Shown: one piece after another, positions 20,418-42,819 of the stretch | Layout of the letters: each line of letters opens with the position of its first letter | Position numbering within the stretch: position 1 is the stretch's first letter | DNA from: a virus | Virus record (IMG/VR): IMGVR_UViG_3300046170_000494 | Span: 32,001-96,000 of that record | DNA: 64,000 nucleotides | Direction: 5' to 3' (one strand) | Notes under the pieces: generated by a model | Database searches by the model: none | Seen by the model: only the letters and a program-made list of their open reading frames with translations | What the model was told of the DNA's origin: nothing | Translations under genes and position numbers: made by a program

Positions 20418-22288
20418 TGGCTTGGGAAACGGGAAAACAGTTATCTAGAAAAAGCGAAGGGGACTTCAATGAAAAGCTTTTAAAAATTGAAGGTTTTTTA
20501 GAAGAGAAGGAAGCTAAGCTTTTACTTTATCAATTCCTAAGAGAAAACATTACGTTTACTGCAGATTTAGTTAGTGGAGTCAAGTTATTCCCTTTTCAGC
20601 ATATGGCGATCAAGGCTATGTTTGAAACTGATTATTTTATGGGAGTATGGTCTCGGGGAATGAGTAAATCATTTACTACTGCAATATATGCTTATCTCGA
20701 CGCGATATTAAATCAAGGTGTTGAGATTGGTATACTTTCTAAATCTTTTCGCCAAGCGAAAATGATATTTAAGAAAATTGAAGATATTGCATCGAAGCCT
20801 GGCGCTACATATTTGTCTCAATGCATAACCCATAAATCAAAAAGCAATGATGAGTGGTTGCTTGAAATTGGTTCTAGCCGCATAAGAGCTCTGCCGCTTG
20901 GTGATGGTGAAAAACTACGGGGTTTTCGTTTCCATAGAATTATTATCGACGAGTTTGCTCTTATGCCTGAAAGAATTTATAATGAGGTTATTATACCTTT
21001 CCTTAGTGTTGTTGAAAATCCGACGCAAAGAGAAGAGTTGTATAATTTAGAGACAGATTTGATAGATAAGGGAGAGATGACTGAAGATGACAGGCATATC
21101 TGGCCAAATAATAAATTGATCGCATTATCTTCTGCAAGTTATAAGTTTGAATATATGTATAAAGCATACGAACAATTTGAAGAGCTTATTATGAAGGGGG
21201 GAGACAAGCATTCTGATGCGCACAGGATCATTATGCAATTCAGTTACGACTGCGCTCCAAAACAGCTATATGACAAAAATTTGATAGAGCAAGCAAAGTC
21301 TACAATGAGCCAAAGTCAATTCGATAGAGAGTTTGGTTCTATATTTACAGATGACAGTAGCGGATATTTTAAAACTTCTAAAATGGCAGCATGCACTTTG
21401 CAAGATGGAGAGAGGCCTAATGTTGAAGTCTGTGGAGAAGTCGGAGAAAAGTATATACTGGCATTTGATCCGAGTTGGGCAGAGAGTGAGAGTAGTGACG
21501 ACTTTGCAATGATGGTATTAAAATTAAATGACGATAAAAAAATTGGCACTGTAGTTCATAGCTATGCATTATCTGGAACAAATTTAAAACAACATATATT
21601 TTATTTTTATTATTTACTAACTCATTTTAATATTGTATCTATTGTAGGAGATTATAATGGAGGAGTTCAGTTTATAAATGCATGCAATGAAAGTTCATTA
21701 TTTAAAAAGAATAAAATTAACATTGGATGTTTGAATACTAATTTTGATGATCTTGAACATTACCAACAAAAGCTTCTTGAAGGTAAAAGAGAATACAATC
21801 TTGAAACAAGGCATATTTGTTATTTAAGAAAGCCAACAAGCCAGTGGATAAGATTAGCTAATGAATTACTTCAAGCTAATTTTGATCACAGAAGGATATA
21901 TTTTGCATCTCGCGCAATCGACGATTCATATAACGAGCAAAGAAAAAAGAAAATACCAATACAAGATTTAAAATTTTTAAGAACTTCGCAAAGCTTAGAG
22001 AGGCAGACTAACGCTGCGAAGATGATTGATTTCGTAGAACATCAATTTGATATGATTAATTTAATTAAAGCTCAGTGCGCTTTAATTCAGATAACTACTT
22101 CAGCGGGAGGAACCCAAACCTTCGATCTACCTCCGAATTTAAAAAGGCAGACTGGCCCAGAAAAAGCAAGAAAAGATTCATATTCTGCATTAGTCCTTGG
22201 AAATTGGATGATTAAATTATATTATGATATGATGAATGTTCAAGTAAAAAATGTAAATTATACCTTTACTCCCATGTTTATAAACTGA
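20417..22288 (+). CDS. terL: terminase large subunit
   Basis: SRGMSKS Walker A, LRGFRFHRIIIDE Walker B, LSSA coupling motif, nuclease AFDP ... DDF ... KDSYSA. Confidence 0.9.
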   Translation: MAWETGKQLSRKSEGDFNEKLLKIEGFLEEKEAKLLLYQFLRENITFTADLVSGVKLFPFQHMAIKAMFETDYFMGVWSRGMSKSFTTAIYAYLDAILNQGVEIGILSKSFRQAKMIFKKIEDIASKPGATYLSQCITHKSKSNDEWLLEIGSSRIRALPLGDGEKLRGFRFHRIIIDEFALMPERIYNEVIIPFLSVVENPTQREELYNLETDLIDKGEMTEDDRHIWPNNKLIALSSASYKFEYMYKAYEQFEELIMKGGDKHSDAHRIIMQFSYDCAPKQLYDKNLIEQAKSTMSQSQFDREFGSIFTDDSSGYFKTSKMAACTLQDGERPNVEVCGEVGEKYILAFDPSWAESESSDDFAMMVLKLNDDKKIGTVVHSYALSGTNLKQHIFYFYYLLTHFNIVSIVGDYNGGVQFINACNESSLFKKNKINIGCLNTNFDDLEHYQQKLLEGKREYNLETRHICYLRKPTSQWIRLANELLQANFDHRRIYFASRAIDDSYNEQRKKKIPIQDLKFLRTSQSLERQTNAAKMIDFVEHQFDMINLIKAQCALIQITTSAGGTQTFDLPPNLKRQTGPEKARKDSYSALVLGNWMIKLYYDMMNVQVKNVNYTFTPMFIN

Positions 22289-26759: not shown

Positions 26760-27275
26760 ATGAGCGAATCAAACGCAGAAACAAATTATAATAATAAAAT
26801 CATTAAGTCTGAGCTTTATAACCTTTGGAAAAAAGCTCGAATAATGTACGATATGGTAAAAGATGATACTGATTTAGAGGATTGGCAAAAGAAAAATATT
26901 CAAGATGCTCATGATTTACTAAATAAATCATTGATGTATACAGAGTATCATGAAATGTTTCCAAATAAAACAGAAGAGATGGTTGAAAGTGAAAACGATA
27001 AAAATAATTTCCTTTCTAATCAGGATAAAAGATACCCAACTCCAGCAGCGCAAGAAAGCGGAGATCAATTTATTACAAGATGCATTTTAGATGCGAATAT
27101 GAAAAAAAGATACCCTGTTCAAGGAGATAGATTTTCTGCTTGTATGGTTATATTTAACGAAAATAAAAATAAAGTTAGCGAAGATTTGCATAATAATCCC
27201 GGAGAAAAATTTGAAGACCCTATGGAAACAAAAGATCCTGAGATTAAAGATCCTGTTAAGCCCATACTTCCTTAA
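26760..27275 (+). CDS. hypothetical protein with FxxRC...R.SAC motif
   Basis: YPTPAAQESGDQFITRCILD...YPVQGDRFSAC, similar to 12782-12934. Confidence 0.65.
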   Translation: MSESNAETNYNNKIIKSELYNLWKKARIMYDMVKDDTDLEDWQKKNIQDAHDLLNKSLMYTEYHEMFPNKTEEMVESENDKNNFLSNQDKRYPTPAAQESGDQFITRCILDANMKKRYPVQGDRFSACMVIFNENKNKVSEDLHNNPGEKFEDPMETKDPEIKDPVKPILP

Positions 27276-29715
27276 TTTTAAAAGAAACTTTATTTTTTAG
27301 ATAAGAGAATTTTATTTCAGAATTATCATCTAATTCTTTAGATAAAAGAAGTTTCGATAGTTCATTTTCAATATTTTTTTGAATTAATCTTTTTACTGGC
27401 CTTGCTCCCATTTTTTCTTTCTTTGCTTCTTCTGCTATATAATTAATTATAGATGCAGTTCCTTTTATAGTTATATTTCTTTCCTTGAGTTTATCTGATA
27501 TTTTTTGCATTTCTAAATTAACTATTTTCTTTAGCTGTGGAATATCAAAATCTTGAAATAAGATTATTTCATTCAACCTATTTAGGAACTCTGGCTTAAA
27601 AAACACCTTGAGCTCGGTCATGAGCTTGTCTTTTAGTTGCGCCGATGATTCTGCTTGACTAAAACCTATTACTGGTTTCGATACTTTTTCGCTGCCTATA
27701 TTTCCAGTGAGTATAATTATACAATTATTAAAGTTAACCTTGCGCCCAGAATTGTCTGTAACAAAACCTTCTTCTAAGATTTGTAATAATATGTTTAGAA
27801 CATCTGGGTGCGCTTTTTCTACTTCATCAAATAATATAACACTGTAGGGATTCCTTCTTACTTTTTCAGTTAATTCTCCACCTTCTTCATAACCTACGTA
27901 ACCAGGAGAAGCCCCTATCAATCTGCTTGCTGATATCTTTTCGGAGAATTCACTCATATCTAATTGTATTAATTTATCTGCGCCTCCATATATGAATTCA
28001 GCGATACATTTTGCTGTATAAGTTTTTCCTGTACCACTTGCACCGATCAACATAAAACTTCCAATCGGTTTTCTTGAATCCTGTAAGCCGGATTTAGATC
28101 TTAATATAGACTCACATATTTCTTCTAGCGCTTCAGATTGACCTATGATTTTGTTTTTTAAAGACTTAAAGAGTCCTAACATTTTCTCTGAATCTTTTTT
28201 AGATATTTCTTTAATCGGTACTCCTGTACGAGAAGATATTACTTCATAAATATCTTTTTCTGAAACAGAAACTCTGGTTTTTATTGTTTTCTTTGCCCAT
28301 TTTTCGATGACTTTATCATATTCTTCGAGAAGATCTAACTGCTTTTCTTGATTTAAGAAATTTTTTGCGTCTAACAGGCTTGCTTGCGATTCATGGATTG
28401 CGATTTCTTCTAATTCTTTTTCTATTTCTTTTGCCCTTTTTGGTCTAGTTATATTTTTTATTTTTACTTTAGATCCAGCTTGATCCATTACGTCTATAGC
28501 TTTATCTGGGAATTGTTTATCAAGCATATATCTTGAAGTTAATTCTACTATTAAATCTAAAACTTCTTCAGAATAACTGATGCTATGAAAGCTTTCATAC
28601 TTATTTTTTATTCCTAAAATTATTTCTCTGGTTTCTTCCTTTGAAGGTTCGATAACTTTAACTGCTTGAAACCTTCTGTCTAGAGCTCCGTCTTTGAGTA
28701 TTGTTTTTTTGTATTCATTTTGAGTAGTCGCTCCGATACATTTGATTTCTCCTCTAGCAAGTAAAGGCTTTAGTAAATTAGCTGCATCCATTCCCCCTTC
28801 TGCGTTTCCGGCTCCAACTAGAGTATGTATTTCATCTATAAATAAAATAACATTTGGATCTTTCTTAGCTTCATCAATTATACCTTTTAACCTCTCTTCA
28901 AATTGACCTCTATATTTTGTGCCAGCTATAAGAGATCCTAGGTCTAAGGAATATATTATTTTGCCCAAAAGAAAATCTGGGGCTTCGCTTTTGACTATTT
29001 TTTGAGATAAACCTTCGACTATAGCGGTTTTCCCTACTCCAGGCTCCCCGAGTAGTACTGGGTTGTTTTTAGTTCTTCTGCACAAAATTTCACAAGCCAT
29101 ATCTATTTCTTGTTGTTTTCCAATAATATTGTCAAATTTACCTTTTAACGCTAATACGTTAAAATTAACTGCATGTTTATCAAGGAAGTTTGAAGTTTCT
29201 TTTGTTTTAGGGGCAGGAGTAGTTTTTGGTTTCGAAGAAGGCTTCGCGTAATTATTAGAATGATCTTTTGAAAGATGTAAATATTCCCTAACTTCCGCAA
29301 TAATATCATCTGCAGAAGCATTAAATAAAGAAAAGTAATAGGGAACTGAAGACTCTTCATACTTTAATAATGCAAGTAACATATGCTCAATTCCTACGTA
29401 TTCATGTTCTAGTTTTTCACTAATAGAAGCTGCGACTTTAAGTATAACGTGAAAATGCTCATCATATACAGGTTCTTCATCGGTTAAGGATTCTGAAGCA
29501 GTTTTTATGAAATCTTCTTCTAGTTGATCTTTTATTAACCCTTGATCTATGTTTAGTAAAAATAATATTTCCGATAAAATTCCAGCATTAAGTTGAATCA
29601 TTCCGTAAAATAAATGATCTAATGTCACAAATTGATGATTATAGTCTGTCGCTGTAGATTTAGCTTTATTAATTGCCTGCTGCGCTCTCGGCGTAAAATT
29701 AGGTCTTGGTGTCAT
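27256..29715 (-). CDS. clpC: ClpC/ClpA-type AAA+ unfoldase
   Basis: Two Clp-N repeats; [33 protein letters not shown]; IGF loop; start at 29715 or 29721. Confidence 0.9.
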
Positions 29716-29737
29716 TTTCATATTATTACACGTTAAA

Positions 29738-32296
29738 CTATTTAACTTCAGACATTTTCATATATATCTTTTCGTCCATTATAGCTAAAGAATCTAAAAA
29801 AACTATATCTTCTCCTTTTCTTCCATACGCTACTATTATACTCTTTTTTGATGGAGTTTTCTTCTTAGAATCAAAATATCTGTCATAAAAATTACCTCTT
29901 CGAGAATTTAAAAGCATAGCGTCATATTTACCATGTTCGTCTGTAATTGAGAGTTTCATATATTTATTTCCGTTACGAGAAGTTCTTTTGATACAATCTT
30001 CTACAACTCCGATAAATTTACCTTTATCATCTGAATTCATAAGATTTAAATCCCTTGAGTCTTTTAACGCCTCGTAGGAATCCATAAAGCATGATTTTAA
30101 CGAAGAGCTATGACTATATCCAAGTAACTCTGTTTCAAAATACCAGTTAGCAAATCCTTGATACATTTTATTTTTATCATAAATTGTTTTGTATAAATCG
30201 TATTTTTTCTTGAATGTTTTAAATCTAGATTCTTTCATTAATGGTTTCCCATCATCTCCTACTAAATCTCCTTTTTTAGCATCTGCTATACAATTTAAAA
30301 GCTTATATTCATACTTTTCGCCAAGAGCAATAAAATTACGTTTCTCTCTGTCTGTCAATAAGTTAAATGCTTGAGCTTCTAAAACCATTAGAGATCTATT
30401 TTTACCTTTACTCTCTAGCGCTCCCGCTTGAATTAATGCACTAAGAATACCGATATTAAGCCCAGCTTGCTTTGCCGCAAGAAAAATATCATACTTTGTG
30501 GGCGTTTCGCTAGAACGAAAGTCTCTAAGAGATTCTAAGGACTTTTCGCTCACCCCCTTAATGCTATTTAAACCAAATCTTATATCCTTACCTTCAATAG
30601 AAAAATCCATGCCAGACTTAGCTAAATCTGGAGACAATAACTTGATTCCAAAGTTAGATAATTCTTGGCATACTTTAGCTATTTCTTCTTGCGGAGATGG
30701 CTCATATTTAGTCATTTTCAATAAAGATATGAAAAACTGCTGTGGATAATTAAACTTGAGATAAGTGGTCCAAGCAGATAGAGTTGCATATGCAAGAGAG
30801 TGTGATTTATTGAATGAATAATTCGCGCTATCTTCCGCTACGCTCCACAAAATGTGAGATATTTCTCTAGGCAGATCATTTTGCTCAACTTTATCTTCAA
30901 TCTTCTTTTTCCAAGCAGGCATTTGATCAACCTTTTTCTTACCTACAATCCTTCTGAGTTGCTCCGCTTCATCAAGAGTGAATCCAACTTTAACTGCCAT
31001 TTGCATCAATTGCTCTTGGTAAAGAGGGATTCCTCCCGTATAGTCTAAAACATCACTAAAAAATTCATGAATAACCTGAGCTTCCTCTGTTTCAGAATAT
31101 GTAGCATAGTTATCTAAAAATTCCAATGCTCCTGGCCTTCCAATCGCTACAACTGCGCTGAGCTGCTCTAGGTCTTTTGGCTTGATTTTCTTACACACCC
31201 TATAGTTTGTATCAGACTCAAGCTGAAAAAGCCCGTGAGGCGCCTTAAGGCCTTGTAGAGGCTTATATACGTCTGCGTCATTCAAATCCACGGAGGAAAT
31301 ATCTATATCTAGATTCCGGCATACGTCGTAAATCACGCTCAATGTTCTTAGGCCTAAGATATCGAACTTCACCATTAATTCTGCAACCCAATTCATGTCA
31401 TATCCGGTGACTAAAGCCCCATCATTTGATTTTTGAATTGGACAAATATCTGTGATTTTTTGAAAAGAAATTGCAATACCACTAGGATGAACTCCCGTGT
31501 TTTTGTTTAAACCTTCTAATTTAAGAGCAATCTCAAATACTTCTGGATTACTTGCTGCCCAATCTGCGAATTTTTCACTTTCTTCTATTGCAGACGAAAT
31601 TGGCATAACAACTCCGAACTTTTTGGGAATAGTGTCACTAACTTCATTCACCTCTTGCTCGGAAAATTCCCCAACAATTTTTCCACACTCTTTCACGCAA
31701 AGCTTTCCGCTCAAGGTGTTTAGTGTTAATATTTTAGCTGTACGAGCGGGATGTTTTTTTTCGATATATTCTATAACTTCAACCCTTCTTTCGTAGGCTA
31801 TGTCGTTATCTACATCCGCTAAAAGACTTCCATCTAAATAAATTTCTCCATCTTTTTCTATTTTTCTTGCCCTACTCTTTGAAACAAAACGCTCAAAGAA
31901 AAGGCTATATTTCACCGGGTCTACATCTGTGACTCCAATTAGATAAAGAACCAAAGAGCCTGCAGCAGACCCTCTTCCTGGACCTGTAGGTATATCATTT
32001 TCGTGACAATAGTTTATTATGTCCCAATTTAATAAAATATAATCTATAAACCCTAGCTCATCTAAGATTTTAAGCTCTGATTTTGCTCTATCAAAATATT
32101 CTTTCTTATTTTTAAATTTATCTATGCCTCTATCATAAACTCCTTTATGGCATAGCTTACGTAGAAAGTCGAAGTTTGAAATATCTTCTGATGCATCAAG
32201 CATTTCATAGTATTTCTTTTCGATTTTAATTTCTGGTAATTTTACGCCTGGAGGCGCACAATCTTCGTAATCTGTAAACTGTTCTGTAAAACTCAT
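29738..32296 (-). CDS. dnaE: DNA polymerase III alpha catalytic core (no PHP domain)
   Basis: GPGRGSAAGSLV, DVDND, HPSG, KFDILGL, LYQEQLM, YSFNKSH, C-terminal OB fold; TAATG-coupled start at 32296. Confidence 0.95.
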   Translation of the reverse strand: MSFTEQFTDYEDCAPPGVKLPEIKIEKKYYEMLDASEDISNFDFLRKLCHKGVYDRGIDKFKNKKEYFDRAKSELKILDELGFIDYILLNWDIINYCHENDIPTGPGRGSAAGSLVLYLIGVTDVDPVKYSLFFERFVSKSRARKIEKDGEIYLDGSLLADVDNDIAYERRVEVIEYIEKKHPARTAKILTLNTLSGKLCVKECGKIVGEFSEQEVNEVSDTIPKKFGVVMPISSAIEESEKFADWAASNPEVFEIALKLEGLNKNTGVHPSGIAISFQKITDICPIQKSNDGALVTGYDMNWVAELMVKFDILGLRTLSVIYDVCRNLDIDISSVDLNDADVYKPLQGLKAPHGLFQLESDTNYRVCKKIKPKDLEQLSAVVAIGRPGALEFLDNYATYSETEEAQVIHEFFSDVLDYTGGIPLYQEQLMQMAVKVGFTLDEAEQLRRIVGKKKVDQMPAWKKKIEDKVEQNDLPREISHILWSVAEDSANYSFNKSHSLAYATLSAWTTYLKFNYPQQFFISLLKMTKYEPSPQEEIAKVCQELSNFGIKLLSPDLAKSGMDFSIEGKDIRFGLNSIKGVSEKSLESLRDFRSSETPTKYDIFLAAKQAGLNIGILSALIQAGALESKGKNRSLMVLEAQAFNLLTDREKRNFIALGEKYEYKLLNCIADAKKGDLVGDDGKPLMKESRFKTFKKKYDLYKTIYDKNKMYQGFANWYFETELLGYSHSSSLKSCFMDSYEALKDSRDLNLMNSDDKGKFIGVVEDCIKRTSRNGNKYMKLSITDEHGKYDAMLLNSRRGNFYDRYFDSKKKTPSKKSIIVAYGRKGEDIVFLDSLAIMDEKIYMKMSEVK

Positions 32297-32940
32297 TATA
32301 CTTCTATCTCCCATATCATTTTTTTGAATACTTCGTAGTTAACTCTAATGTCATATAGGGCATCATGCAATTTTTTCTCATCAAAGTCAATATCAAAATC
32401 TTTGCAACATTGCTTAAGATTACAACTTAAACCCCTCTCAATCAGGTGGTTCAGTCGATATTGCCATGCTAAAAAATTATCGTCTTTGTCTAATCTAATT
32501 CTTTTCTTTAGAGCTTTTGCTAGGCAAAGAGTGTCTACTAAATGTTCTGTGTAGCTAAAATCAGTTTCTGCATTTTCATCAATTAATTTGCGATGAACAT
32601 TATGCATATATACATCAAACCCTAGTAAATTGTGACCAACTTTAAGATAAGAATCATCATACAGATATTTTTCGAAATGATCTAATGCAGCTTTGGGGCA
32701 TGTAGCTTTTTTCTTGTACTTTGCTTCTGTAAAACCAGTGATCTTAGCTGCGTCAGGAGAAACATTTAATTCATCCCACTTAAGCCAATAATCTTTTTGC
32801 TCTACAATTTTATTATTTTCTATTACAAGGAATGCTAATTGCCATGGTTTATTGTTGGACACAAGATTTAAATTACATGTTTCATAATCGAACAGTAAAT
32901 ACTTTTTATTCTTTTGAAATCTAAGCAGTGATTCTTTCAT
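32296..32940 (-). CDS. DEDDh 3'-5' exonuclease (epsilon-like)
   Basis: FDYET, GHNLLGFD, HDALYD. Confidence 0.9.
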   Translation of the reverse strand: MKESLLRFQKNKKYLLFDYETCNLNLVSNNKPWQLAFLVIENNKIVEQKDYWLKWDELNVSPDAAKITGFTEAKYKKKATCPKAALDHFEKYLYDDSYLKVGHNLLGFDVYMHNVHRKLIDENAETDFSYTEHLVDTLCLAKALKKRIRLDKDDNFLAWQYRLNHLIERGLSCNLKQCCKDFDIDFDEKKLHDALYDIRVNYEVFKKMIWEIEV

Positions 32941-33694
32941 TTTTTTCCTTCCAGCTTTCGAAGCAAAATTCATTGCTGCCGAAATGATCTAAGTTTGGTT
33001 TTGATAATGTTTTATTGCCGAAAGTACGGCCTGTAATGCACTTATAGGTTTGTAATGCCTGCACATCTTTTTTCTTATTATAATAAATGCTCTTCGTTTG
33101 TTGTAATGTCATATTGTTTTTGCCGGCATATTCCTTAACTTTACTTGCTACGAAGTTGTCAAAAGGTAATGAATTGTTTTCTATAAAAAGCGTTGGCTTG
33201 CAAAAATCAAAATTTGGCGTGCAGTTACAAAATTTAATTAAATTATTAAATATAAATGAATCATAAAATGGGATTGCCATTAATAGATCTTTATTATTCC
33301 AGAATCTTTTGAGTGTTTTTCTGTCTACGCAGTTATAGTTCTCTGTATAAGCTGCACTAGAAATATTATTTAATAATTTACATCCTTTTGAGTTTTTTGC
33401 AAAAATAATAATTTTGTGAGAGCATTGTTGGTTTTCTTCTTTTGGGTTAACTTTCGCATCTTCCTTCATGTCAATCCTTAATCCAAAAATTAATTTTAAG
33501 CCAAGATTATCCGCTTGCTTTTTAGCTTGCAGGAATCCTGTGAGAGAATCTTCTACAAGAACTACTTCTTTTAATTTATTTTCTGTAGCAATTGTAAAAA
33601 CGCTGTCCGACTTACCTTCTTTATGTGTAATTGGATCTTCAAGCGTTAATATACTTTTGCCAATAGAAAAGTGGCTTTTGAATAATGGTATCAT
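32921..33694 (-). CDS. PHP domain of DNA polymerase III alpha as a separate ORF
   Basis: PLFKSHFSIGKSIL ... VEDSLTGF ... LIFGL ... IIFAKNSKGCKLL resembles the DnaE PHP domain; TTGACA(33725-30)-N17-TAGAAT(33702-07). Confidence 0.8.
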   Translation of the reverse strand: MIPLFKSHFSIGKSILTLEDPITHKEGKSDSVFTIATENKLKEVVLVEDSLTGFLQAKKQADNLGLKLIFGLRIDMKEDAKVNPKEENQQCSHKIIIFAKNSKGCKLLNNISSAAYTENYNCVDRKTLKRFWNNKDLLMAIPFYDSFIFNNLIKFCNCTPNFDFCKPTLFIENNSLPFDNFVASKVKEYAGKNNMTLQQTKSIYYNKKKDVQALQTYKCITGRTFGNKTLSKPNLDHFGSNEFCFESWKEKNERITA

Positions 33695-33763
33695 GCTATC
33701 TATTCTATAATAAATACAGTTCAATGTCAAGAAAGAAAAGTTGTTAACAGCTATATATTCCTA

Positions 33764-33804: not shown

Positions 33805-36240
33805 ATGGATATAAAAGTAAAAAAACGAAACGGACGTCTTCAAGACTTTAATGTCGAGAAAATTAATGCTAATGTTGAACGCGCATGTAACGATATCGCT
33901 GATGTATCAGTAAGTGAAATCGTGCTAGATGCTCAACTTCAATTATACGACAAGATCACAACCAAGGAAATTGATACAGCTCTTATATTAAGCGCTCGAG
34001 AAAAGATCGAAAAGGAGCCTAACTATAGTTACGCCGCAGGTAGACTACTACTGAATACAGTATATAAAGAAGTTTTTAAAGAAGGTGTTGATAGTGACGC
34101 GTTCAGGCTTCAATACAGAAAGAGCTTTATTCAAGGAATAAAAAAGCTCGTTAAGGGTGGTAAGCTTAATACTAGAATGTTGGAATACGATTTAGGGAAG
34201 CTTTCTGAAGCTATTCGTATTCGTAGAGATAACTCTTTTAAATATTTGGGTATACAAATTTTAACAGATAGGTATTTTATTCGAGAAGACGATAAAATCA
34301 TGGAGGCTCCTCAGTCTTTTTGGATGAGAGTCGCAATGGGCTTAGCGCTAAACGAAGAAAACAAAGAGGATTGGGCGATTAAATATTATGATATGTTTAG
34401 TCAATTTTTATATACTTCTTCGACCCCTACTCTTTTTAATAGTGGAACGGTCAGATCTCAATTAAGCTCATGTTATTTAAACACTTTTGATGACAGTATT
34501 GATGGTATTTTTGACGGTGCTTGGCAAGAGGCTCGTAAGAGTAAATATGCTGGAGGCCTAGGTCTTGATGTAACCCCTTTTAGGTCAACAGGTTCACACA
34601 TTAAAGGGACTAACGGTGTTTCTAGCGGACTTGTACCGTGGCTTAAGATATACAATGATCTCCTCGTAGCAGTAAATCAAGGAGGTAAGCGTCCAGGTGC
34701 TGGATGTGCTTATCTAGAGCCTTGGCATTTAGATTTTGAAGACTTTTTAAACTTAAGGAGGAACACTGGGGATGACAGGTTGAGGTGTCATGATATGAAC
34801 ACCGCTTCTTGGATTCCTGATGAATTTATGCGTAGAGTTCAGAATGAAGATGTTTGGTACTTTTTTGATCCAAAAGAATCTGGACTGCACGATTTGTTTG
34901 GGGCGGAGTTTGATAAAAAGTACAATGAACTATGTAATCAAGCAGAAGAAGGCTTAATTAAAAATTACAGAATAACCCCTGCAAAAGAATTGTGGAAAAA
35001 AATGCTTAAGGTTTTATTTGAAACTTCTCACCCATGGAATACTTTCAAGGATCCGTGCAACATTAGATATACAAATCAACACGAAGGTATTGTTCATAGT
35101 AGTAATTTATGTACAGAAATCACTCTTCACACTAAATCTTCTAAATACGAAAAAGGAGAAAAGACTAATATTGGAGAGACTGCAGTATGTAATCTTGGGT
35201 CAGTCAACCTTCTTAATCATTTAAATGAAGACAATACTTTAGATTATGATAAATTAAAAAATACTATTCACACTGCAATTAGGGCATTAGATAGTGTTGT
35301 CGATCTTAATTTTTATCCAACTAAGGAAGCAGAGGCTAGTAATTTAAGGCATCGCCCTATTGGTTTAGGTATGATGGCTCTTCATGATATTTGTCACAGA
35401 ATGAATATTAATATTGATAGTGATGAAGCTGTAGAGTTTAATGATAAATTATTTGAATTTTATTCTTATCATGCAATATACGCTAGTTCTCTATTGGCGA
35501 AAGAAAAAGGTAGATACGAAACTTTTGATGGGTCTCTGTGGAGCAAAAATATTCTACCTATTGACTCTAATAATAGATTAATGAATTACCGTACAAAATC
35601 CAAGGAATCCGAAAGAGGTGAGGGGGAAAGCATGAAAGATGAATGGCTTGAATTAAGGGCTCATATATCTGAATTTGGCATGCGCAATAGTAATGTTATG
35701 GCTATTGCACCAACAGCTACCATCGGCTATATTAATGGAGTAGAGCAAAGTATAGAACCTAATTTTTCTGTGTTGTTTGTTTATGAAAACAAAAGCGGTA
35801 ATTTCTTTATTACGAATGAACACTTTATTAATGACATGAAAAATGCTGGTTTATGGAATAGCGAAATCGCTAAGCTCGTAAAAAGCGTCGATGGGGACCT
35901 ATCTTTACTAAATGGAGATATTCCATCTGAATTAAAAGAGAAATATAAAACAGCGTTTGATCGCGATATGTTTAAACTAATTGAATGTAATGCGGCTCGC
36001 CAAAAATGGATAGACCAAGCGGTAAGCTTTAATTTATACAATAAATCTACTTCCTTAAAGTATTTAAATGATGTTTATATGTCTTGCTGGGAAGCTGGAT
36101 TAAAAACAACTTATTATCTTCGTAATCGCGCTGCATCCAAAGTAGAAAAAGCTCATAATGATGAAAGCAAAAAAGAAGAACCATCCGCTTGCAGTATAGA
36201 AGCGATGAAGAATGGTGGTACTTGCGAAAGCTGTCAATAG
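33805..36240 (+). CDS. nrdA: class I ribonucleotide reductase alpha subunit with ATP cone
   Basis: VKKRNG ATP cone; STPTLFNSG, LSSCY, SNLCTEI, APTATI, KTTYYLR, C-terminal CxxC. Confidence 0.97.
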   Translation: MDIKVKKRNGRLQDFNVEKINANVERACNDIADVSVSEIVLDAQLQLYDKITTKEIDTALILSAREKIEKEPNYSYAAGRLLLNTVYKEVFKEGVDSDAFRLQYRKSFIQGIKKLVKGGKLNTRMLEYDLGKLSEAIRIRRDNSFKYLGIQILTDRYFIREDDKIMEAPQSFWMRVAMGLALNEENKEDWAIKYYDMFSQFLYTSSTPTLFNSGTVRSQLSSCYLNTFDDSIDGIFDGAWQEARKSKYAGGLGLDVTPFRSTGSHIKGTNGVSSGLVPWLKIYNDLLVAVNQGGKRPGAGCAYLEPWHLDFEDFLNLRRNTGDDRLRCHDMNTASWIPDEFMRRVQNEDVWYFFDPKESGLHDLFGAEFDKKYNELCNQAEEGLIKNYRITPAKELWKKMLKVLFETSHPWNTFKDPCNIRYTNQHEGIVHSSNLCTEITLHTKSSKYEKGEKTNIGETAVCNLGSVNLLNHLNEDNTLDYDKLKNTIHTAIRALDSVVDLNFYPTKEAEASNLRHRPIGLGMMALHDICHRMNINIDSDEAVEFNDKLFEFYSYHAIYASSLLAKEKGRYETFDGSLWSKNILPIDSNNRLMNYRTKSKESERGEGESMKDEWLELRAHISEFGMRNSNVMAIAPTATIGYINGVEQSIEPNFSVLFVYENKSGNFFITNEHFINDMKNAGLWNSEIAKLVKSVDGDLSLLNGDIPSELKEKYKTAFDRDMFKLIECNAARQKWIDQAVSFNLYNKSTSLKYLNDVYMSCWEAGLKTTYYLRNRAASKVEKAHNDESKKEEPSACSIEAMKNGGTCESCQ

Positions 36241-36509
36241 TGAATCGACATCAACATTTAAAAGCTTTTAAAGAAGCTATTGTTAGATGTAAATTAATTA
36301 GAAGAGATCTAAGAAGAATTAATTCTAATATAGATTCTATAAATTATAGAAAAAATAGAGATTACGCTGAAACAGCTTATTTTCAAACATTGGAAGAGAT
36401 AATAGATAGAGGTAAAAAGTATCTTTCTCTAAACCCAGAGGCAGATGAATCAATAAGAGTTGCGATAGATATTGAAAAATATCAGCATCTTTTAGATAAA
36501 TTAGAGTAA
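36240..36509 (+). CDS. hypothetical protein between nrdA and nrdB
   Basis: GTG start overlaps the nrdA TAG. Confidence 0.55.
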   Translation: MNRHQHLKAFKEAIVRCKLIRRDLRRINSNIDSINYRKNRDYAETAYFQTLEEIIDRGKKYLSLNPEADESIRVAIDIEKYQHLLDKLE

Positions 36510-36517
36510 ACTTAATC

Positions 36518-36546
36518 TTGACTTAGAACGTTATTTATTATACAAT
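36518..36546 (+). promoter_or_regulatory. sigma70-type leaderless promoter of nrdB
   Basis: TTGACT-N17-TACAAT; ATG 7 nt after the -10. Confidence 0.8.
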
Positions 36547-36552
36547 AAAACT

Positions 36553-37566
36553 ATGAATGATAAAACAGGAGAATTACTAACAGAAAATATCGCGGGGGTA
36601 AATAGAATTTTACCTCATAAACATAAATATGCGTGGGATTTATTTTTAAAAAGTTGCGCCAATAATTGGATGCCTACTGAAATTAGTATGCAGAACGACA
36701 TTAAACAATGGAAAAACGATGAAATTACAGAAGACGAAAAATTACTCGTTAAACGCTGCCTTGGATTCTTTGCGGGATCTGAGTCTTTGGTTGGTAATAA
36801 CCTGCTGCTTTCGGCTTTTAGATTTATTACTGATGCTGAATGCCGTCAGTACATACTTCGTCAAGCTTTTGAGGAAAGTCTTCACAACCTTACGGTAGTG
36901 TATATTTGTGATAGCTTAGATCTTGATATAGAAGAGGTTTTTGCTGCTTACGAAACAATTCCAAGTATTAAAGCTAAAGATGACTTCTTAATGGGTATTA
37001 CTAATGATATTAGTCGTCAAGATTTCAGCGCTCACACTACAGAGGGTAAGCAAGAAATTTTGCGTAATTTTTTAACTTATTGGATTGTTTGTGAAGGAAC
37101 ATTCTTTTTTAGCGGATTTGCAATGTTATTAGCCTTAGGTCGCCAAAATAAACTTCAAGGAATATCCGACCAAATTAAATATACTTTAAGAGACGAAAGC
37201 TCTCATATTGCGTTTGGAACTTATTTGATTAATACTTTGATTGATCAAAATCCAGAAATCTGGACAAAAGAAATTCAAGATGAATTTGTGGAGCATATGA
37301 AAAAAGCTGTAGAGCTTGAAATAGCTTACGCTCACGATGTTTTGCCTACAGGTATATTGGGTTTAAATGCAGATATGTTCGTAGAATATATGCATTATAT
37401 AGGAAACAGAAGACTAGAGGGTATCGGTTTAGATTACCGTTTCCCTAGTGATAAAAACCCTTTTCCTTGGCTAAGTGAAGTTGTAGATGTTCAAGCTATG
37501 GGGAATTTCTTTGAAAGAAGAGTTAGAGAATATCAACAAAGCGGGGCTTTAGAAGACGACTTTTAA
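36553..37566 (+). CDS. nrdB: class I RNR beta subunit with class Ic (R2c) signature
   Basis: Ligands E77, E108-x2-H111, CEG, DESSH; Val115 at the radical-Tyr position; C-terminal FFERRVREY. Confidence 0.92.
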   Translation: MNDKTGELLTENIAGVNRILPHKHKYAWDLFLKSCANNWMPTEISMQNDIKQWKNDEITEDEKLLVKRCLGFFAGSESLVGNNLLLSAFRFITDAECRQYILRQAFEESLHNLTVVYICDSLDLDIEEVFAAYETIPSIKAKDDFLMGITNDISRQDFSAHTTEGKQEILRNFLTYWIVCEGTFFFSGFAMLLALGRQNKLQGISDQIKYTLRDESSHIAFGTYLINTLIDQNPEIWTKEIQDEFVEHMKKAVELEIAYAHDVLPTGILGLNADMFVEYMHYIGNRRLEGIGLDYRFPSDKNPFPWLSEVVDVQAMGNFFERRVREYQQSGALEDDF

Positions 37567-37593: not shown

Positions 37594-37617
37594 AAGCCCC
37601 CGTAAGGGGGCTTTTTT
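37594..37617. terminator. intrinsic terminator between convergent nrdB and DUF1501 genes
   Basis: AAGCCCCC-GTAA-GGGGGCTT followed by TTTT. Confidence 0.85.
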
Positions 37618-38908
37618 ATGACAAGATATCAAGTAAAGGCTCGCCTTTATGAGCTATTGTAAAAGGTCTTCCAGAAGGAGAATATTGGTAGTCATTTAAT
37701 GGTAAGCCTAAAGTGTGTGCAATTGTAGCATTTAAGTCTTCTGGTTTAACAGGCTTGCCTTCTGTAGGAGTGCGCCCCGTTTTGTCGGTTTCTCCATAAG
37801 TCATTCCACCTTTAACTCCTCCTCCTGCTAAAAAAGCTGTAAAGCAATAAGGCCAGTGATCTCTTCCGTCTCTTCCGTTAATATTTGGAGTTCTTCCAAA
37901 TTCAGAAGTTAAAACTACCAAAGTGTCAGAAAGCATACCTCTTCGATTTAAATCGATCAACAGTCCACTTAATGCTTGATCGATATCTGTGCAATTTGCC
38001 GCTACTCTATCAAAGTTATTATCATGTGTATCCCATCCTCCTCTTGTTACTTCAACATATCTTACCCCATGTTCTACTAACCTTCTTGCTAATAAGCATC
38101 CTTTTGCAAAATTAGTTTGACCATAAAGATTACTTGTTGACTCAGGCTCTTTTGTGATGTCAAAAGCGTTTAAGTCATTACTATTCATTAATTTAATTGC
38201 GTCTTTATATAAGTCAGAATAAGCTCTTACTTTTTTCTGCGGAAATTGGGTAGAAAAATTTTCATTTAAAGCTTCTGCGATAGATATTCTACTTTGAAAA
38301 TGCTCATGATCTAAGTATGAAGCCATTTTGCTATTAGCTAATCCTGAGTTTGGATTATTAATTGGTAATGCTCCGTATTTAGATTCTAAAAAACCAGCGC
38401 CGCCTCCGCCGCCTCCTATTTTAACATTGCTGGGTATTGTTCTGTTGATTGAGCCAGAAAGTTTGGACACCCAGCTACCAAATGTAGGATGAACAATTGT
38501 GCCTCTTTTAAGATAGCTTGTATGCATTAAATAACTGGCTTGCTCGTGAGCTCCTTGGCTTGTGTTCATTGTTTTAATTATTGCTGCATGATGCATAAGC
38601 TCGGCGGTCTTTGGTAGGTTTTCCGAAAGGATTACTCCATCTGCGCTTGTTGGAATAGATTTAGTAGGGCCTTGAATATCTGGTGCGTCTGGCTTCGGCC
38701 CAAATGTATCAAGGTGAGACATGGCTCCTCCCATATTTAAATAAATTACGTGCCTTGCGGTAGGAACTCTTGCTCCTGGATTTAACGCGCTAACACTATT
38801 ATGTATATACGCTCCTGCCATTGGCATAAGACCCACCCCAAAACATGCTTTTGCAGCATGAGCTATAAATTCTCTTCTTCCTAATTCGTCTATTGTATTA
38901 AAGTTCAT
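37616..38908 (-). CDS. DUF1501 family protein with Tat-like signal
   Basis: GRREFI Tat motif; YLNMGGAMSHLDTF.PKP, HEQASYLM, CLLARRLVEHGVRYVEV..GGWDTH, SEFGRTP, GRDHWP. Confidence 0.93.
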   Translation of the reverse strand: MNFNTIDELGRREFIAHAAKACFGVGLMPMAGAYIHNSVSALNPGARVPTARHVIYLNMGGAMSHLDTFGPKPDAPDIQGPTKSIPTSADGVILSENLPKTAELMHHAAIIKTMNTSQGAHEQASYLMHTSYLKRGTIVHPTFGSWVSKLSGSINRTIPSNVKIGGGGGGAGFLESKYGALPINNPNSGLANSKMASYLDHEHFQSRISIAEALNENFSTQFPQKKVRAYSDLYKDAIKLMNSNDLNAFDITKEPESTSNLYGQTNFAKGCLLARRLVEHGVRYVEVTRGGWDTHDNNFDRVAANCTDIDQALSGLLIDLNRRGMLSDTLVVLTSEFGRTPNINGRDGRDHWPYCFTAFLAGGGVKGGMTYGETDKTGRTPTEGKPVKPEDLNATIAHTLGLPLNDYQYSPSGRPFTIAHKGEPLLDILS

Positions 38909-38961
38909 AATAGATTATTACACAATTTTGAGAAAAGTCAACAGGAAGTGTATGATATATT

Positions 38962-39348
38962 GTGCGGTTTTTATTGCTTATATTCATTATACCCAGTATT
39001 TTATGCGCTAGATTGCAAAGAGAAGATTATTTAGATAATTGTGATTGGTGCAAAAATCAAGCTAAGTCTACTCAGCCATTAGATATCGGCGAATGGAGCA
39101 TGAGGTGCCAGCAAAAACCGAAACCAATATGGTTTAATTATAGAAATATAGGCAGAGCATATGGAACTTATAAAGAAAAAACTTCTATGTGTTGGATTTA
39201 TTCTGAAAAATTAGGTTGGATATATAACACTCCTCAATATAAAGATTATATTTATACTCACAAACTTGGATGGATCTACGTAAAAGATGGCAAGGTTTAT
39301 GTCTTCAAAAAGAAAAAGTGGGATTATTTTACAAATATAAATTCATGA
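38962..39348 (+). CDS. secreted protein with CxxC and LGWIY repeats
   Basis: Signal peptide; CDWC; WIYSEKLGWIY and IYTHKLGWIY; GTG start 14 nt after GTGTA. Confidence 0.65.
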   Translation: MRFLLLIFIIPSILCARLQREDYLDNCDWCKNQAKSTQPLDIGEWSMRCQQKPKPIWFNYRNIGRAYGTYKEKTSMCWIYSEKLGWIYNTPQYKDYIYTHKLGWIYVKDGKVYVFKKKKWDYFTNINS

Positions 39349-41594
39349 GTATTAATTAATGTCCAAATTATTTCTTTGTATGCATCTTTTTCGTTTTTAA
39401 TATTATCAGTAAATATTTTCATTTCTTTAGAAGAGGGTTTTCTATTTAATATATATTTATATCCTGTTGTAATTTTATCATTCAATGACTTTTGCGACTG
39501 TATTGCTTTTATAATTTCAAAGTTTTTATTTTTTAATAATCTAGTTTCAACAAAACCATTAAGAAGATTTAATACTTGTGTTGCAGAGGCGCTTTTATTT
39601 GCGTTTTCTATCTGTTCCCTATCTGAACCACCAAACTCACGAATAAGGTGCCCTATGGGCGCAGGAGAAGGTAGTTCTGAGGCTCTTACTGAATTGCGGT
39701 CTTTTACAAAGTTTTGCTGATATTCTTTTTTCTTGTTTTCAATCTGAGATTTGAATTTATCAACACAAGATTCGCAACAAAAAGCTAAAGTCTCTCCGTT
39801 TTCATTTAGAGCTAATAATGTTGGGTCTATTGCTCTGCCAGGTTTAATTGGACAGTCTGTGTTTATTGGCTTGCTGAATTTAGACTCGCTTTGAGTTTTA
39901 GGTCTTTCAGTTTTGTTGATTTTAGCCATCAATTCCGAAAACAATTCTTCTCCTGTCATTTCTGAAAAATTTTGAAAATTTTGATATCCTTTTGTATTTT
40001 GCTCTAATTTTCTAGAATCAACATTATTTACCGTTAAATTAACTAAGGAATCCCAGATTTGTTCTCCGCTCATTCTTTCAAGCATGGGTCCTTGATAGAA
40101 ATAGGGTACTGCATTTTTGGATTGATTTTCGCTATCTGGACCAGCCACAATCCATTTTACTTCTACGGGCATAGACTGATCTTTATTGTCTTTGGGAATA
40201 ATGTCTCTCACCACAGATTGGCGCTGAAAAGTTTTTGTATTATATAATATTCTAAGAAATTCCTTAAGGTCATAATTTAATGCAACCATAACTTTTTCGA
40301 GGTGAAGTTGAAGTTTTGGATCGGTCGCTAATGTATCATCAAACATATTGTCTATGGGTTCAATTAATGCTAGTCCAAAAGCTTCTTTCCAGAGTCGGTT
40401 AACAATAACTGCTGTAAATCTTGGGTTTGAATCTGAGGCTAGCCAGTTTGCATAAATTTCTCTAGATCCTGATTGAGGGGCTTTTGTTTTAATGTCTATC
40501 TCTTCTCCAAAAATAGTTTTACCCATTAATGCTTGGTTTGGTTTTCCGTTGTCGTATTGATAATCTTTTGGAAGATTTATCTTTCCATTGCCCATACTAG
40601 CTAGTCCAGTTTGAAGAATGTCTTGTATGTCTCTCACTCCGTTTTGTAATTGCCTTGATTTTTGCGGTTCATCATTATTTTCTAATTTGCGCCTTTCATC
40701 TCTAGCCAATCTGTTTAATATGGTTAAATTTTCTGGACTTTTGGTTCTTAAGTTAGTTGAGCCACTCGTAAAAGCTGCCATTTCGTAAAATTGCTTTTGA
40801 GTCCAGCGATCAAATGGATGATCGTGGCATTGGGCGCATTCTAAGCTCGTACCTAAAAATACTCTAACTGTATTTGCCATACTGTCTAATGGCATATTTA
40901 CATCACGAGCAAAATAACTAACTCCCTCATTACCTTTAATCCATAGTGGGCCAGAAGAAGAAAGCATCTCTCTTACCCATTCATCATAAGGTTTGTTATT
41001 GGAGATGAAGTCTTTTACATAATTTTTATATGGAACGCCAGATATTCTATTGTTTAATCTATCTTTAATTCTTAATATATCTGCCCAAAAGTTAAACCAA
41101 TGGCTTACATATCCTTCGCTACCTAATAATTGATCAATTAGCTGCGATCTTTTATTTTTATCTTTACTATTTAAAAAAGAATCTACTTCTGTTAAAGATG
41201 GAGTCCTGCCAATAACCTTTAAGTATGATCTGCGTAAAAATGTAGCGTCGTCAACTTCTTTATTTGGTCGAAGATTATATCCTCTAAGTTTTGTTTCAAT
41301 CAAGCTATCAATATAATTAGCATGAGTTTTTAAATCTTTATCTGATAAGGGTTTTTTGAATTTGGGTAGAGCTTCATGGCTTGGGGGGAAATTATTTTTA
41401 ATATATGCTTGATTATCTTCTGTGAGAGAATCTATTGCTATTCTAAATAACTGTAAATCACTAGATCTTTTTATTAAAGCGTGAGTCGCATTTGCCTCAA
41501 GAATATCTCCTTTTAGATCTTTTCCGTTGTTAAAATAAAGCGTATCGCCGAAGCAATAGATTGATGATAAGAATAATAAAATTAGTTTTTTCAT
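39324..41594 (-). CDS. DUF1549/DUF1553 protein with N-terminal SHD1-like and inserted YHS-like domains
   Basis: Signal peptide; DDATFLRR, CAQCHDHPFDRWTQ, NPRFTAVIVNRLW; insert CPIKPG...AFCCESC. Confidence 0.9.
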   Translation of the reverse strand: MKKLILLFLSSIYCFGDTLYFNNGKDLKGDILEANATHALIKRSSDLQLFRIAIDSLTEDNQAYIKNNFPPSHEALPKFKKPLSDKDLKTHANYIDSLIETKLRGYNLRPNKEVDDATFLRRSYLKVIGRTPSLTEVDSFLNSKDKNKRSQLIDQLLGSEGYVSHWFNFWADILRIKDRLNNRISGVPYKNYVKDFISNNKPYDEWVREMLSSSGPLWIKGNEGVSYFARDVNMPLDSMANTVRVFLGTSLECAQCHDHPFDRWTQKQFYEMAAFTSGSTNLRTKSPENLTILNRLARDERRKLENNDEPQKSRQLQNGVRDIQDILQTGLASMGNGKINLPKDYQYDNGKPNQALMGKTIFGEEIDIKTKAPQSGSREIYANWLASDSNPRFTAVIVNRLWKEAFGLALIEPIDNMFDDTLATDPKLQLHLEKVMVALNYDLKEFLRILYNTKTFQRQSVVRDIIPKDNKDQSMPVEVKWIVAGPDSENQSKNAVPYFYQGPMLERMSGEQIWDSLVNLTVNNVDSRKLEQNTKGYQNFQNFSEMTGEELFSELMAKINKTERPKTQSESKFSKPINTDCPIKPGRAIDPTLLALNENGETLAFCCESCVDKFKSQIENKKKEYQQNFVKDRNSVRASELPSPAPIGHLIREFGGSDREQIENANKSASATQVLNLLNGFVETRLLKNKNFEIIKAIQSQKSLNDKITTGYKYILNRKPSSKEMKIFTDNIKNEKDAYKEIIWTLINTHEFIFVK

Positions 41595-41629
41595 TGTAGG
41601 ATTATAATATTTACAAACTATAATTACAC

Positions 41630-41655
41630 AAAAAAGCCACCCATTTCTGGGTGGC
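41630..41655 (-). terminator. intrinsic terminator
   Basis: Minus strand GCCACCCA-GAAA-TGGGTGGC-TTTTTT. Confidence 0.85.
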
Positions 41656-41679
41656 CGTATGGAACATTTATTAGATTTC

Positions 41680-42330
41680 TTAAAAAGAAAAGTTAAATGC
41701 TGCAGACAATAAATCTTCTCCATCCATAGATTCGGAGTCTACTCTCGCATATCCTATAGAGCCTTCAATAGAATCGGTTAGATTTTTTGAAAGAGTCGCG
41801 CCAACTTGATAGTAATCATTATTTTCAAGTCCATACCTATCTGAATTACCGACTGATCCGCCAATAGTTAAGTTTGCGAATTGCAAATCAAAACCGTGTG
41901 ACATTCCTCCTTCGAAGACGTAGTTATTATCACTGGTATCTCTTTGAATTAATAGATAAGGAGATAATACAGTATTCAAGCTCAATCTCACAACTGCATC
42001 GAGTTGACTTTGACCACTCACAATCTCTTCATGCTCAAGGCCAACATAAGCTTTGAGTAAATCTGCAAATTCAGAAGAAGCTCCTACAGAAAAAACATAA
42101 ACACTTTGTCCGTCAGAGAGTTCATCAAAAGAAGATGCCGAACCTTCAAGGGTTAGGCTTTCAATTTCTTGACTGTAACCGACTGAAGCAGAAAGACTTT
42201 CTTCTGTGAGTAAAGAGCCTTTATTGAATGTGTCGCTTCCATATCCAAGGGATACGGAGCCGGATCCAGCGTAAGCTGCGTTAATAAAAAGCGCCGTAAT
42301 GGCGGTAACAGTAATTAATAATTTTTTCAT
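41680..42330 (-). CDS. outer-membrane beta-barrel protein
   Basis: Signal peptide; alternating amphipathic strands; C-terminal AAFNFSF ending in Phe. Confidence 0.8.
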   Translation of the reverse strand: MKKLLITVTAITALFINAAYAGSGSVSLGYGSDTFNKGSLLTEESLSASVGYSQEIESLTLEGSASSFDELSDGQSVYVFSVGASSEFADLLKAYVGLEHEEIVSGQSQLDAVVRLSLNTVLSPYLLIQRDTSDNNYVFEGGMSHGFDLQFANLTIGGSVGNSDRYGLENNDYYQVGATLSKNLTDSIEGSIGYARVDSESMDGEDLLSAAFNFSF

Positions 42331-42366: not shown

Positions 42367-42819
42367 TCAATCAATTTTTATTTTATTTATAGATTTTCCT
42401 TTTCTGCGAGGTATTTTGATTTCTAATATACCATTATTCATAGATGCAGATATTTTATCAGGATCTAATTCTGATGTAAGCTTAAATGTATTCTTAAATC
42501 CATCTTTAAAGATTTGTTGCTGAACATATTCTCCTTCGATAGATTCTTCTTTTGGGGTTTTATAAGAGACAGAGAGCTTTCCGTTGTCGCATTCGATGTT
42601 GATGTCTTCCTTGGGTATTCCTGGAGTTAGTAGTTCTATTACAGTTTCTTTTTCTCTCGCAATAACATTAGCTTGAACTGGATAATCATCTAAATCATTA
42701 AAATAATCTGTTTCTTCAGGTAATGAGAAGTTAAGGAATAAATCATTTAATAGATTGTTCATTGTTGTTTTTGTTTTATTTGAATCTGGTCTATAGTTTT
42801 TTTTGAAGTAATATGACAT
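42367..42819 (-). CDS. Hsp20/alpha-crystallin small heat-shock protein
   Basis: ELLTPGIPKEDINI ... ISASMNNGILEIKIPR. Confidence 0.93.
   Translation of the reverse strand: MSYYFKKNYRPDSNKTKTTMNNLLNDLFLNFSLPEETDYFNDLDDYPVQANVIAREKETVIELLTPGIPKEDINIECDNGKLSVSYKTPKEESIEGEYVQQQIFKDGFKNTFKLTSELDPDKISASMNNGILEIKIPRRKGKSINKIKID

Follow-up and report, generated by a model that had tools for sequence, protein, structure and literature searches.

Why would a phage carry a pair of genes from families that rank among the largest in Planctomycetes and Verrucomicrobia, with 41 copies in Rhodopirellula baltica? The question is raised by a 64,000-nucleotide stretch of the IMG/VR virus record IMGVR_UViG_3300046170_000494 (positions 32,001 to 96,000; hereafter the window), which encodes on its minus strand a DUF1501 protein (37616–38908) and, upstream of it, a large protein with PSCyt2/DUF1549 and PSD1/DUF1553 domains (39324–41594). 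In bacteria, DUF1501 and PSCyt1/PSCyt2/PSD1 form a "conserved genetic module" of Planctomycetes, Verrucomicrobia and Lentisphaerae (PMC3542564; PMC5615132), whose PSCyt and PSD domains were, according to these papers, first named by Studholme et al. (2004). Sequence comparisons indicate that the phage pair was acquired from marine bacteria of one verrucomicrobial order and is kept under selection.

The gene pair as phage cargo

Both genes are intact, as the initial annotation had stated. The DUF1501 gene encodes 430 residues that match Pfam DUF1501 (PF07394) over the whole profile (positions 1–390 of 390; E = 1.7e-110, 370.3 bits against a cut-off of 27). Its N-terminus carries a signal of the twin-arginine translocation (Tat) type (GRREF), whose arginines R11 and R12 do not vary among 34 homologues and from which export via Tat is predicted. 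The open reading frame (ORF) of the partner spans 39324–41723 (−), and the true start is the ATG at 41594, which opens the signal peptide MKKLILLFLSSIYCFG: an MKK signal peptide opens every phage and bacterial homologue at this position, and the stretch of the ORF before it coincides in part with the terminator hairpin (41656–41635) of the preceding gene. The resulting 756-residue protein has a signal for the general secretory (Sec) pathway, followed by PSCyt2/DUF1549 (PF07583; E = 1.9e-45, 155.8 bits against a gathering score of 29.8) and then PSD1/DUF1553 (PF07587; E = 4.2e-26, 92.3 bits against 28.5). Its CAQCH motif occupies residues 253–257, with C253, C256, H257 and H259 invariant in 30 homologues.

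The genes around the pair are those of a phage. Besides a large terminase (20417–22288), a DnaE-type polymerase, a ClpB/C-like AAA+ protein and a class I ribonucleotide reductase (RNR; 33805–37566), the window encodes a primase, a DnaB-type helicase, UvsX, tail and fibre proteins and a minor head protein. Nothing in 50,697 GenBank phage records is more than 24–34% identical to the terminase or the polymerase, so the window represents an uncultured lineage. The nearest virus record (G001) is a 31-kb fragment in which the gene under study is absent.

We compared the window with phage loci on IMG/VR contigs, labelled L001 onwards and up to 214 kb in length. The IMG/VR scan recovered 48 distinct loci with DUF1501 at 61–100% identity; tblastn of the window proteins revealed the window's own phage genes around the module (DnaE, RNR, Hsp20, HNH, primase etc.) in 32 of them, and in 33 of the loci the large gene is the immediate upstream neighbour of DUF1501. 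In the window the two genes share a strand and stand 415 bp apart with a small ORF between them; in L006–L011 the distance is 22 bp. Base composition agrees with that of the phage, as had been claimed from AT richness: GC content is 0.39 for DUF1501 and 0.33 for the large gene, with 0.349 (34.9%) for the window, and GC at third codon positions (GC3) is 0.25 and 0.24, against mostly 0.37–0.47 in the bacterial orthologues. Among phage copies the ratio of nonsynonymous to synonymous substitution rates (dN/dS) is 0.014–0.084 for DUF1501 and 0.034–0.10 for the large gene, with synonymous sites near or at saturation; DUF1501 of phages that carry it without the partner gives 0.03–0.04.

Metagenome contigs can be chimeric, and one DUF1501 copy (L041:9992–11291) is split by a frameshift into ORFs of 383 and 101 residues, either a pseudogene or an assembly error. 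Such observations could be taken to mean that the pair is host DNA misjoined to a phage contig, or a recent passenger devoid of function. Both readings are contradicted by the identical synteny across dozens of independent assemblies from different samples, the phage-like GC3, saturated dS combined with dN/dS below 0.1, and the phage promoter motifs described below. Shared synteny, phage-like GC3 and low dN/dS together exclude a chimeric host insert for practical purposes, and we regard artefact or dead cargo as extremely improbable. Judged by sequence, the pair is what is termed auxiliary metabolic genes, in that it is host-derived, lies in a bona fide phage genome and is conserved under selection. 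A comparison of L003 with the window gives unequal identities for DUF1501 (99%), the large gene (87%) and the small ORF (75%), a pattern that suggests recombination among phages inside the 4-kb module.

The surroundings of the start codons support integration of the module into the phage programme. A promoter-like site at 38914–38941 (−), TTGACT-N16-(TGT)AATAAT, ends 5 nt before the DUF1501 ATG and contains a GTGTA (38923–38919) situated 15 nt before that codon; TTGAyTT...GTGTAATAAT is likewise found before DUF1501 in L001, L003, L012, L013, L015 and L017. The extended −10 element (TGT-AATAAT) behind TTGACT implies near-leaderless transcripts. The control region of the large gene (41601–41656, −) consists of the terminator hairpin of the upstream gene (41656–41635), GTGTAATTAT (41629–41620) and a TATAAT (41606–41601) that lies 6 nt before the ATG. 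The initial annotation had cited GTGTA upstream of both genes as a sign of integration. This is accurate for DUF1501, whereas the copy at the large gene (41629–41625) lies 35 nt before the ATG, outside the 14-nt register. In related phages, the large gene does have the motif in register, 14–15 nt before its ATG (L006, L009 and L018, and L024 and L029 of the phage clade B introduced below), preceded by TTGACA in L006 and L009, where the pair forms a tight operon. In the window, the small plus-strand ORF has GTGTA 14 nt before its GTG start.

This placement is a property of the whole window. GTGTA stands 13–17 nt before 12 of its 59 ORF starts, against 0.14 expected at random placement; examples are the gene starts at 5972, 6529, 10319, 15412, 26760, 38908, 38962, 48888, 58710 and 61886. 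Plain-word counts in the window are not over-represented (23 against 23.4 expected for GTGTAA, 6 against 2.4 for TGTGTAAT), and only the position of the motif relative to start codons is non-random. With the motif at DUF1501 and the small ORF here, and at the large gene in related phages, the proposal that the module belongs to the phage programme is supported. The RNR-beta and DUF1501 genes converge on a GC-rich hairpin (37594–37613), which probably terminates both.

Donor locus and repeated capture

A search for cellular DUF1501 in one representative genome per GTDB species returned, as the closest proteins, exclusively marine Opitutales/Opitutia sequences from metagenome-assembled genomes (MAGs) and single-amplified genomes (SAGs), at 72–80% identity and with Puniceicoccaceae and "Ca. 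Seribacter sulfatis" among them. Identity is at most 53% in other Verrucomicrobiota and 35–50% in Planctomycetota, Poribacteria and others. The large protein is 55–58% identical to its nearest Opitutales orthologues and 46–58% over all of them. Contigs of 150–260 kb bearing a 78%-identical DUF1501 are chromosomal, with genes for leucyl-tRNA synthetase, a phosphonate ABC transporter and a sulfatase.

The host locus, syntenic in 24 Opitutales contigs, has the order PSCyt2/PSD1 (~890 aa), DUF1501 (432 aa) and a PSCyt1 cytochrome gene, whose product combines three PSCyt1 (Cytochrome_CBB3-like) domains with leucine-rich repeats. A gene for a multihaem/TPR protein adjoins this operon, and a conserved S1 sulfatase gene lies two genes downstream. 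Because each of the five Opitutales genomes searched (2–4 Mb) holds 15–30 DUF1501 matches, the phage carries one particular paralogue. These comparisons identify a single conserved locus of marine Opitutales (Verrucomicrobiota) as the apparent donor of the pair.

In trees built for both proteins, with support from the Shimodaira–Hasegawa-like approximate likelihood ratio test (SH-aLRT), the phage sequences fall into several groups. The window belongs to clade A (29 DUF1501 rows), which is the neighbour of one Opitutales subclade; clade B (L024–L032 and L048) is nested inside another with SH-aLRT support of 99–100%, and its phages share the window's synteny. For the large protein, a single phage clade of A plus B, a group that was named after the tree had been seen, is rejected by the approximately unbiased (AU) test (difference in log-likelihood 229, p = 0.0008). 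By the trees, the pair was thus captured independently at least twice, from different Opitutales lineages. Since copies of clades A and B carry the same phage motif, independent captures appear to have been wired to one and the same signal.

Elsewhere the cargo varies. Clade C comprises ~200-kb phages whose only module gene is DUF1501; three are CheckV-complete and without PSCyt2 anywhere. A fourth group, reached through the RNR anchor, has DUF1501 at ~50–54% and the partner at ~40% identity, and additional IMG/VR contigs hold DUF1501 at 62–64%. In four loci of the fourth type (L152, L184, L201 and L206), 1–2 kb of other genes separate the large gene from DUF1501. A profile-derived IMG/VR scan yielded 253 DUF1501-encoding stretches, and about 40 of 80 RNR-beta-anchored phage contigs have the module within 10 kb. 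A tblastn search with the host PSCyt1–leucine-rich-repeat gene found nothing in the window or in 129 phage loci, and the phage proteins contain no Pfam PSCyt1. The selected DUF1501 of partner-less phages and the distribution of the module lead us to conclude, from gene content, that DUF1501 is the core cargo and its partner optional; the cytochrome gene appears never to have been taken.

The initial annotation had the large phage protein add an N-terminal SHD1-like domain and a YHS-like cysteine insert, and this part of it has to be withdrawn: in the alignment of phage and host proteins, the N-terminal β domain and the CP(I/L)KPGR...FCCxxC insert are both present in the Opitutales orthologues, so the phage did not add them. 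Neither is found in the outgroups L073 and L074. By the alignment, both elements are ancestral to the orthogroup and came to the phage by inheritance. In many host proteins the cysteine insert occurs twice or an extra CMSCH (PSCyt1-like) segment is present, and the phage protein has neither the second insert nor this segment; in one phage clade (L024–L030) the insert has been lost entirely.

One of the sequences grouping with the ~200-kb phages that carry DUF1501 alone is L072 (JAYQMT010000004.1, 210,818 bp), a contig from a MAG binned as "Cellvibrionales". It has phage genes in common with the window and is probably a mis-binned phage genome.

Predicted structures and a proposed function

The expectation that DUF1501 would be alkaline-phosphatase-like is borne out by its predicted structure. 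The AlphaFold2 (AF2) model, with a predicted local distance difference test (pLDDT) score of 86.7, matches ENPP6 (VIA Z = 20.7), the Xanthomonas nucleotide pyrophosphatase/phosphodiesterase Xac NPP (20.3) and PafA (20.0), and many sulfatases and a phosphonate monoester hydrolase at Z = 18–19 (18.9 for sulfatases); LtaS and LtaP are also among the matches. Root mean square deviations (rmsd) are 3.0–4.3 Å over 241–273 residues, and the Z scores are effectively tied. The model thus assigns DUF1501 to the alkaline-phosphatase superfamily, with an α/β core. A regular-expression search found no formylglycine motif, C/S-x-P/A-x-R (CxPxR), in DUF1501, the Pfam Sulfatase family did not match, and the profile similarity to sulfatases is weak and centred on the strand bearing the metal ligands. 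NPP and PafA phosphoesterases have a Thr/Ser nucleophile and two Zn sites (Asp, Asp-His, His). Of the conserved residues of polar and metal type in DUF1501, the phage protein keeps S64, H121, D293, H295, R339, R349 and H351, and the alignment adds T/S116 and D350 to the conserved set.

The large protein was modelled with pLDDT = 81.5 and a predicted template modelling score of 0.81. Behind the Sec signal come an SHD1-like β domain (residues 15–69), a helical PSCyt2 core with CAQCHDH at 253–259, PSD1, a TRASH/YHS-like cysteine insert (~581–610) and a C-terminal end that Pfam marks as DUF4214-like. Among 48,161 PDB chains, the best match of the N-domain is Sla1 homology domain 1 (2hbp; Z = 7.4, rmsd 1.7 Å, 54 of 66 residues). 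Pfam SHD1 does not match, and the resemblance is, by the model, one of fold only; the initial description of this domain therefore stands as to shape and not as to family. The cysteine pattern likewise exists as described. Its profile matches all fall below the gathering scores (22.5 bits against 27 for TRASH_HVO_1752_C, 22.4 against 27 for Ta0938 and 14.9 against 30.3 for YHS; E = 1e-4 to 0.03 overall), and the region is modelled at low confidence. For the PSCyt2/PSD1 core, Foldseek found no solved relative at E ≤ 0.001, and VIA returned a best Z of 6.5, to a helical structure and under the stated noise level, with no cytochrome-like match; these searches used the whole 756-residue model and do not amount to proof of a new fold.

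On what is shown for the pair (its identity, its origin, the selection on it, its fold class and its promoter motifs) we base a working model of its export, complex, cofactor, substrate and benefit. We consider it reasonably probable that the two host-derived proteins are exported and act as a metallo-ester-hydrolase (DUF1501) with a haem- or metal-bearing accessory partner, auxiliary to a nutrient or carbon step of the host. Both would reach the host periplasm during infection. DUF1501 would be the catalytic subunit, a metallo-hydrolase of the alkaline-phosphatase superfamily acting on a phospho- or sulfo-ester; it would fold, and probably be loaded with metal, in the cytoplasm, which in our proposal accounts for its Tat signal. 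The large helical protein would serve as the accessory subunit through its CxxCHxH site (haem c or metal) and TRASH-like cysteine cluster, and would link up with the PSCyt1 cytochrome, which is encoded by the host and missing from the phage. The benefit may be that a rate-limiting periplasmic acquisition of phosphorus, sulfur or carbon is sustained or raised as host gene expression declines.

Several points weigh against this model. The Asp-His metal pair of sulfatases and NPPs (Asp-His/Asn in sulfatases) aligns with an invariant E-F-G-R in DUF1501, so its active site would not be classical and its chemistry could differ. Haem on CAQCH is a prediction from the motif, and CxxCHxH could equally hold zinc or iron. 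Sequence searches of the PDB returned nothing meaningful for either protein, and the literature names no substrate, cofactor or activity for any DUF1501, PSCyt2 or PSD1 member. That the two proteins act as one complex is something we infer, and expression during infection is presumed from promoter motifs only. The window holds no tRNA genes, which precludes matching to a host by tRNA; the probable host is thus named from gene phylogeny alone.

The same partner could instead point to electron transfer, with DUF1501 as a Tat-exported cofactor-bearing enzyme and PSCyt2/PSD1 as a c-type cytochrome that would pass electrons to the host PSCyt1 and so sustain energy supply. The CxxCH motif is invariant, Sec export suits haem attachment in the periplasm, DUF1501 is predicted to be exported by Tat, and the host operon ends in the protein with three PSCyt1 domains and adjoins the multihaem/TPR gene. 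Division of export routes between two neighbouring genes is also seen in SorAB sulfite dehydrogenase, a Tat-exported enzyme with a Sec-exported c-type cytochrome; in contrast to SorAB, DUF1501 has a hydrolase-type fold with no known redox cofactor, and its partner is known by the haem motif alone. Against electron transfer stands the fold, which is shared with hydrolases, transferases and mutases of the alkaline-phosphatase superfamily, and to our knowledge no redox enzyme has it. A bona fide cytochrome gene never occurs in the phage loci (the window and 129 others), and many phages drop the partner with the haem motif and retain DUF1501 only. A redox module, although electron transport was proposed for the bacterial genes by Kamneva et al. 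2012 (PMC3542564), thus seems unlikely to us.

The hydrolase model can be extended, more tentatively, to the infection as a whole. Large marine phages of a widespread family, probably infecting Opitutales, may have repeatedly captured DUF1501, with or without its partner, from specific paralogues among the 15–30 host copies and may plug it into the host's cytochrome, at a step that limits phage production; that step would most likely be the periplasmic release of phosphorus or sulfur from organic esters. We offer this as a possibility that falls short of being probable. If true, the phage copy would be a minimal, single-copy system for finding the chemistry of the module.

Neighbouring genes, known relatives and meaning

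Two further genes at the locus had been listed together with the module. The first, antisense between the module genes (38962–39348, +), encodes a putatively exported protein of 128 residues, hydrophobic at its N-terminus and with CDWC and LGWIY repeats. The gene is real and under purifying selection (dN/dS = 0.09–0.24), with only nine related clusters among 5.8 billion proteins and no Pfam, PHROG or PADLOC match. Its distribution sets it apart from the module: it occurs in L001–L005, L012–L014 and L016 only, nine of the ~33 pair-carrying phage contigs, and is absent in L006–L011. We therefore view it as a lineage-specific insertion that, by its distribution, is not a module part. L018, L043 and L044 have a distant 173-residue look-alike (24% identity) on the upstream side of the large gene.

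The second gene (41680–42330, −), upstream of the pair, encodes a 216-residue porin-like protein with a signal peptide and a C-terminal Phe. Sub-threshold matches to Phage_OMP and PEP-CTERM OMP, and look-alikes among phage clusters, TorF/Gcw_chp and KdgM porins, make the predicted outer-membrane barrel of the initial annotation likely. A terminator stands between this gene and the module, and related phages devoid of the module retain the gene, which hence lies outside the module.

With such neighbours, tail-fibre genes nearby, and LtaS and LtaP among the structural matches, DUF1501 could be imagined as an LtaS/EptA/OpgB-like transferase acting on a glycan or lipid, which would remodel the envelope to block adsorption of competing phages or to prepare lysis. 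Across phages, however, neither the porin nor the ORFan is linked to the module, and LtaS-type enzymes are anchored in the membrane, unlike DUF1501, which is soluble and predicted to be Tat-exported. The phage DUF1501 is moreover 80% identical to a conserved host locus of housekeeping type and evolves under the same constraints, which argues for the host's own function over a new anti-phage role; PADLOC gave no match. Envelope remodelling or superinfection exclusion is accordingly quite unlikely in our assessment. A reading of the locus as a defence system was rejected as well.

Other observations concern the phage backbone. The DnaE-type polymerase (29738–33730, −) is encoded in separate ORFs (29738–32314 and 32921–33730) with another ORF (32296–32973) between them, which could reflect a split gene or an intervening element. 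The ClpB/ClpC-like double AAA+ protein (27256–29721, −; phrog_4871, E = 7e-242) forms a chaperone set with an Hsp20 small heat-shock protein (42367–42819, −). Of 326 related IMG/VR stretches, the best 80 have an RNR small subunit (36553–37566) at 92–100% identity, and neighbouring phage genes at only 40–70%; the gene is either unusually strongly conserved or frequently exchanged across a broad phage group.

Returning to the exported hydrolase with its accessory partner, the closest known system is the bacterial module itself. Kamneva et al. 2012 proposed a role in "electron transport, membrane targeted" (PMC3542564) and He et al. 2017 a "carbohydrate-related, near sulfatases" one (PMC5615132); neither proposal has experimental support. 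The phage pair shares with that module the Pfam families, their order and adjacency, and the placing of a Tat-signal DUF1501 beside a signal-peptide PSCyt2/PSD1 with CxxCH, and its genes are orthologous (80% and 58% identity) to one marine Opitutales module. It differs in being a phage-encoded single copy, as against 15–30 DUF1501 matches in a host, in having no PSCyt1 gene, in a large protein that is one insert shorter, in its GC content of 33–39% and in its phage promoter motifs. As architectures without PSCyt1 are also listed by Kamneva et al. 2012 (PMC3542564), a phage pair without PSCyt1 is a variant of the module and is not excluded from it.

By its predicted core fold, DUF1501 resembles NPP/ENPP enzymes, PafA, S1 sulfatases and phosphonate monoester hydrolases, from which it departs by the absent formylglycine motif, E-F-G-R at the Asp-His pair, its predicted Tat export and an obligate neighbour gene of unsolved fold. 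Among the nutrient genes of marine phages, pstS and the phoH-type phosphate-stress genes of cyanophages are the nearest parallels. Like these, the pair is host-derived, ameliorated, under purifying selection and repeatedly captured, with a predicted role in the host envelope or periplasm and not in the virion or replication; it differs as a predicted two-subunit exported system, in probable phages of Verrucomicrobia and not of cyanobacteria or SAR11.

The bacterial module is already known. GenBank phages gave no DNA or protein match for DUF1501 or the large gene, PHROGs has no family for these two, the small ORF or the porin-like protein, and NCBIfam gave no match above cut-off. In the literature we found no description of the module in a phage, in line with the initial assessment; two papers mention DUF1501 as well as phage and, to judge by their titles, deal with Pseudomonas phages from compost and with Dickeya genomics.

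Since 2004, the DUF1501, PSCyt and PSD families have been without a function, a solved structure or a genetic handle. The phage pair offers a compact, host-independent construct (430 + 756 aa) for expression, metal and haem analysis and structural work. It also represents a new class of auxiliary genes for phages of marine Verrucomicrobia, of which very few are known, and assigns a probable host, from genes, to a large group of ocean phages that are still uncultured. That one orthologue pair has been kept under strong selection and independently re-acquired suggests that, of the many paralogues in these bacteria, this one would matter to cell physiology within the time-scale of an infection.

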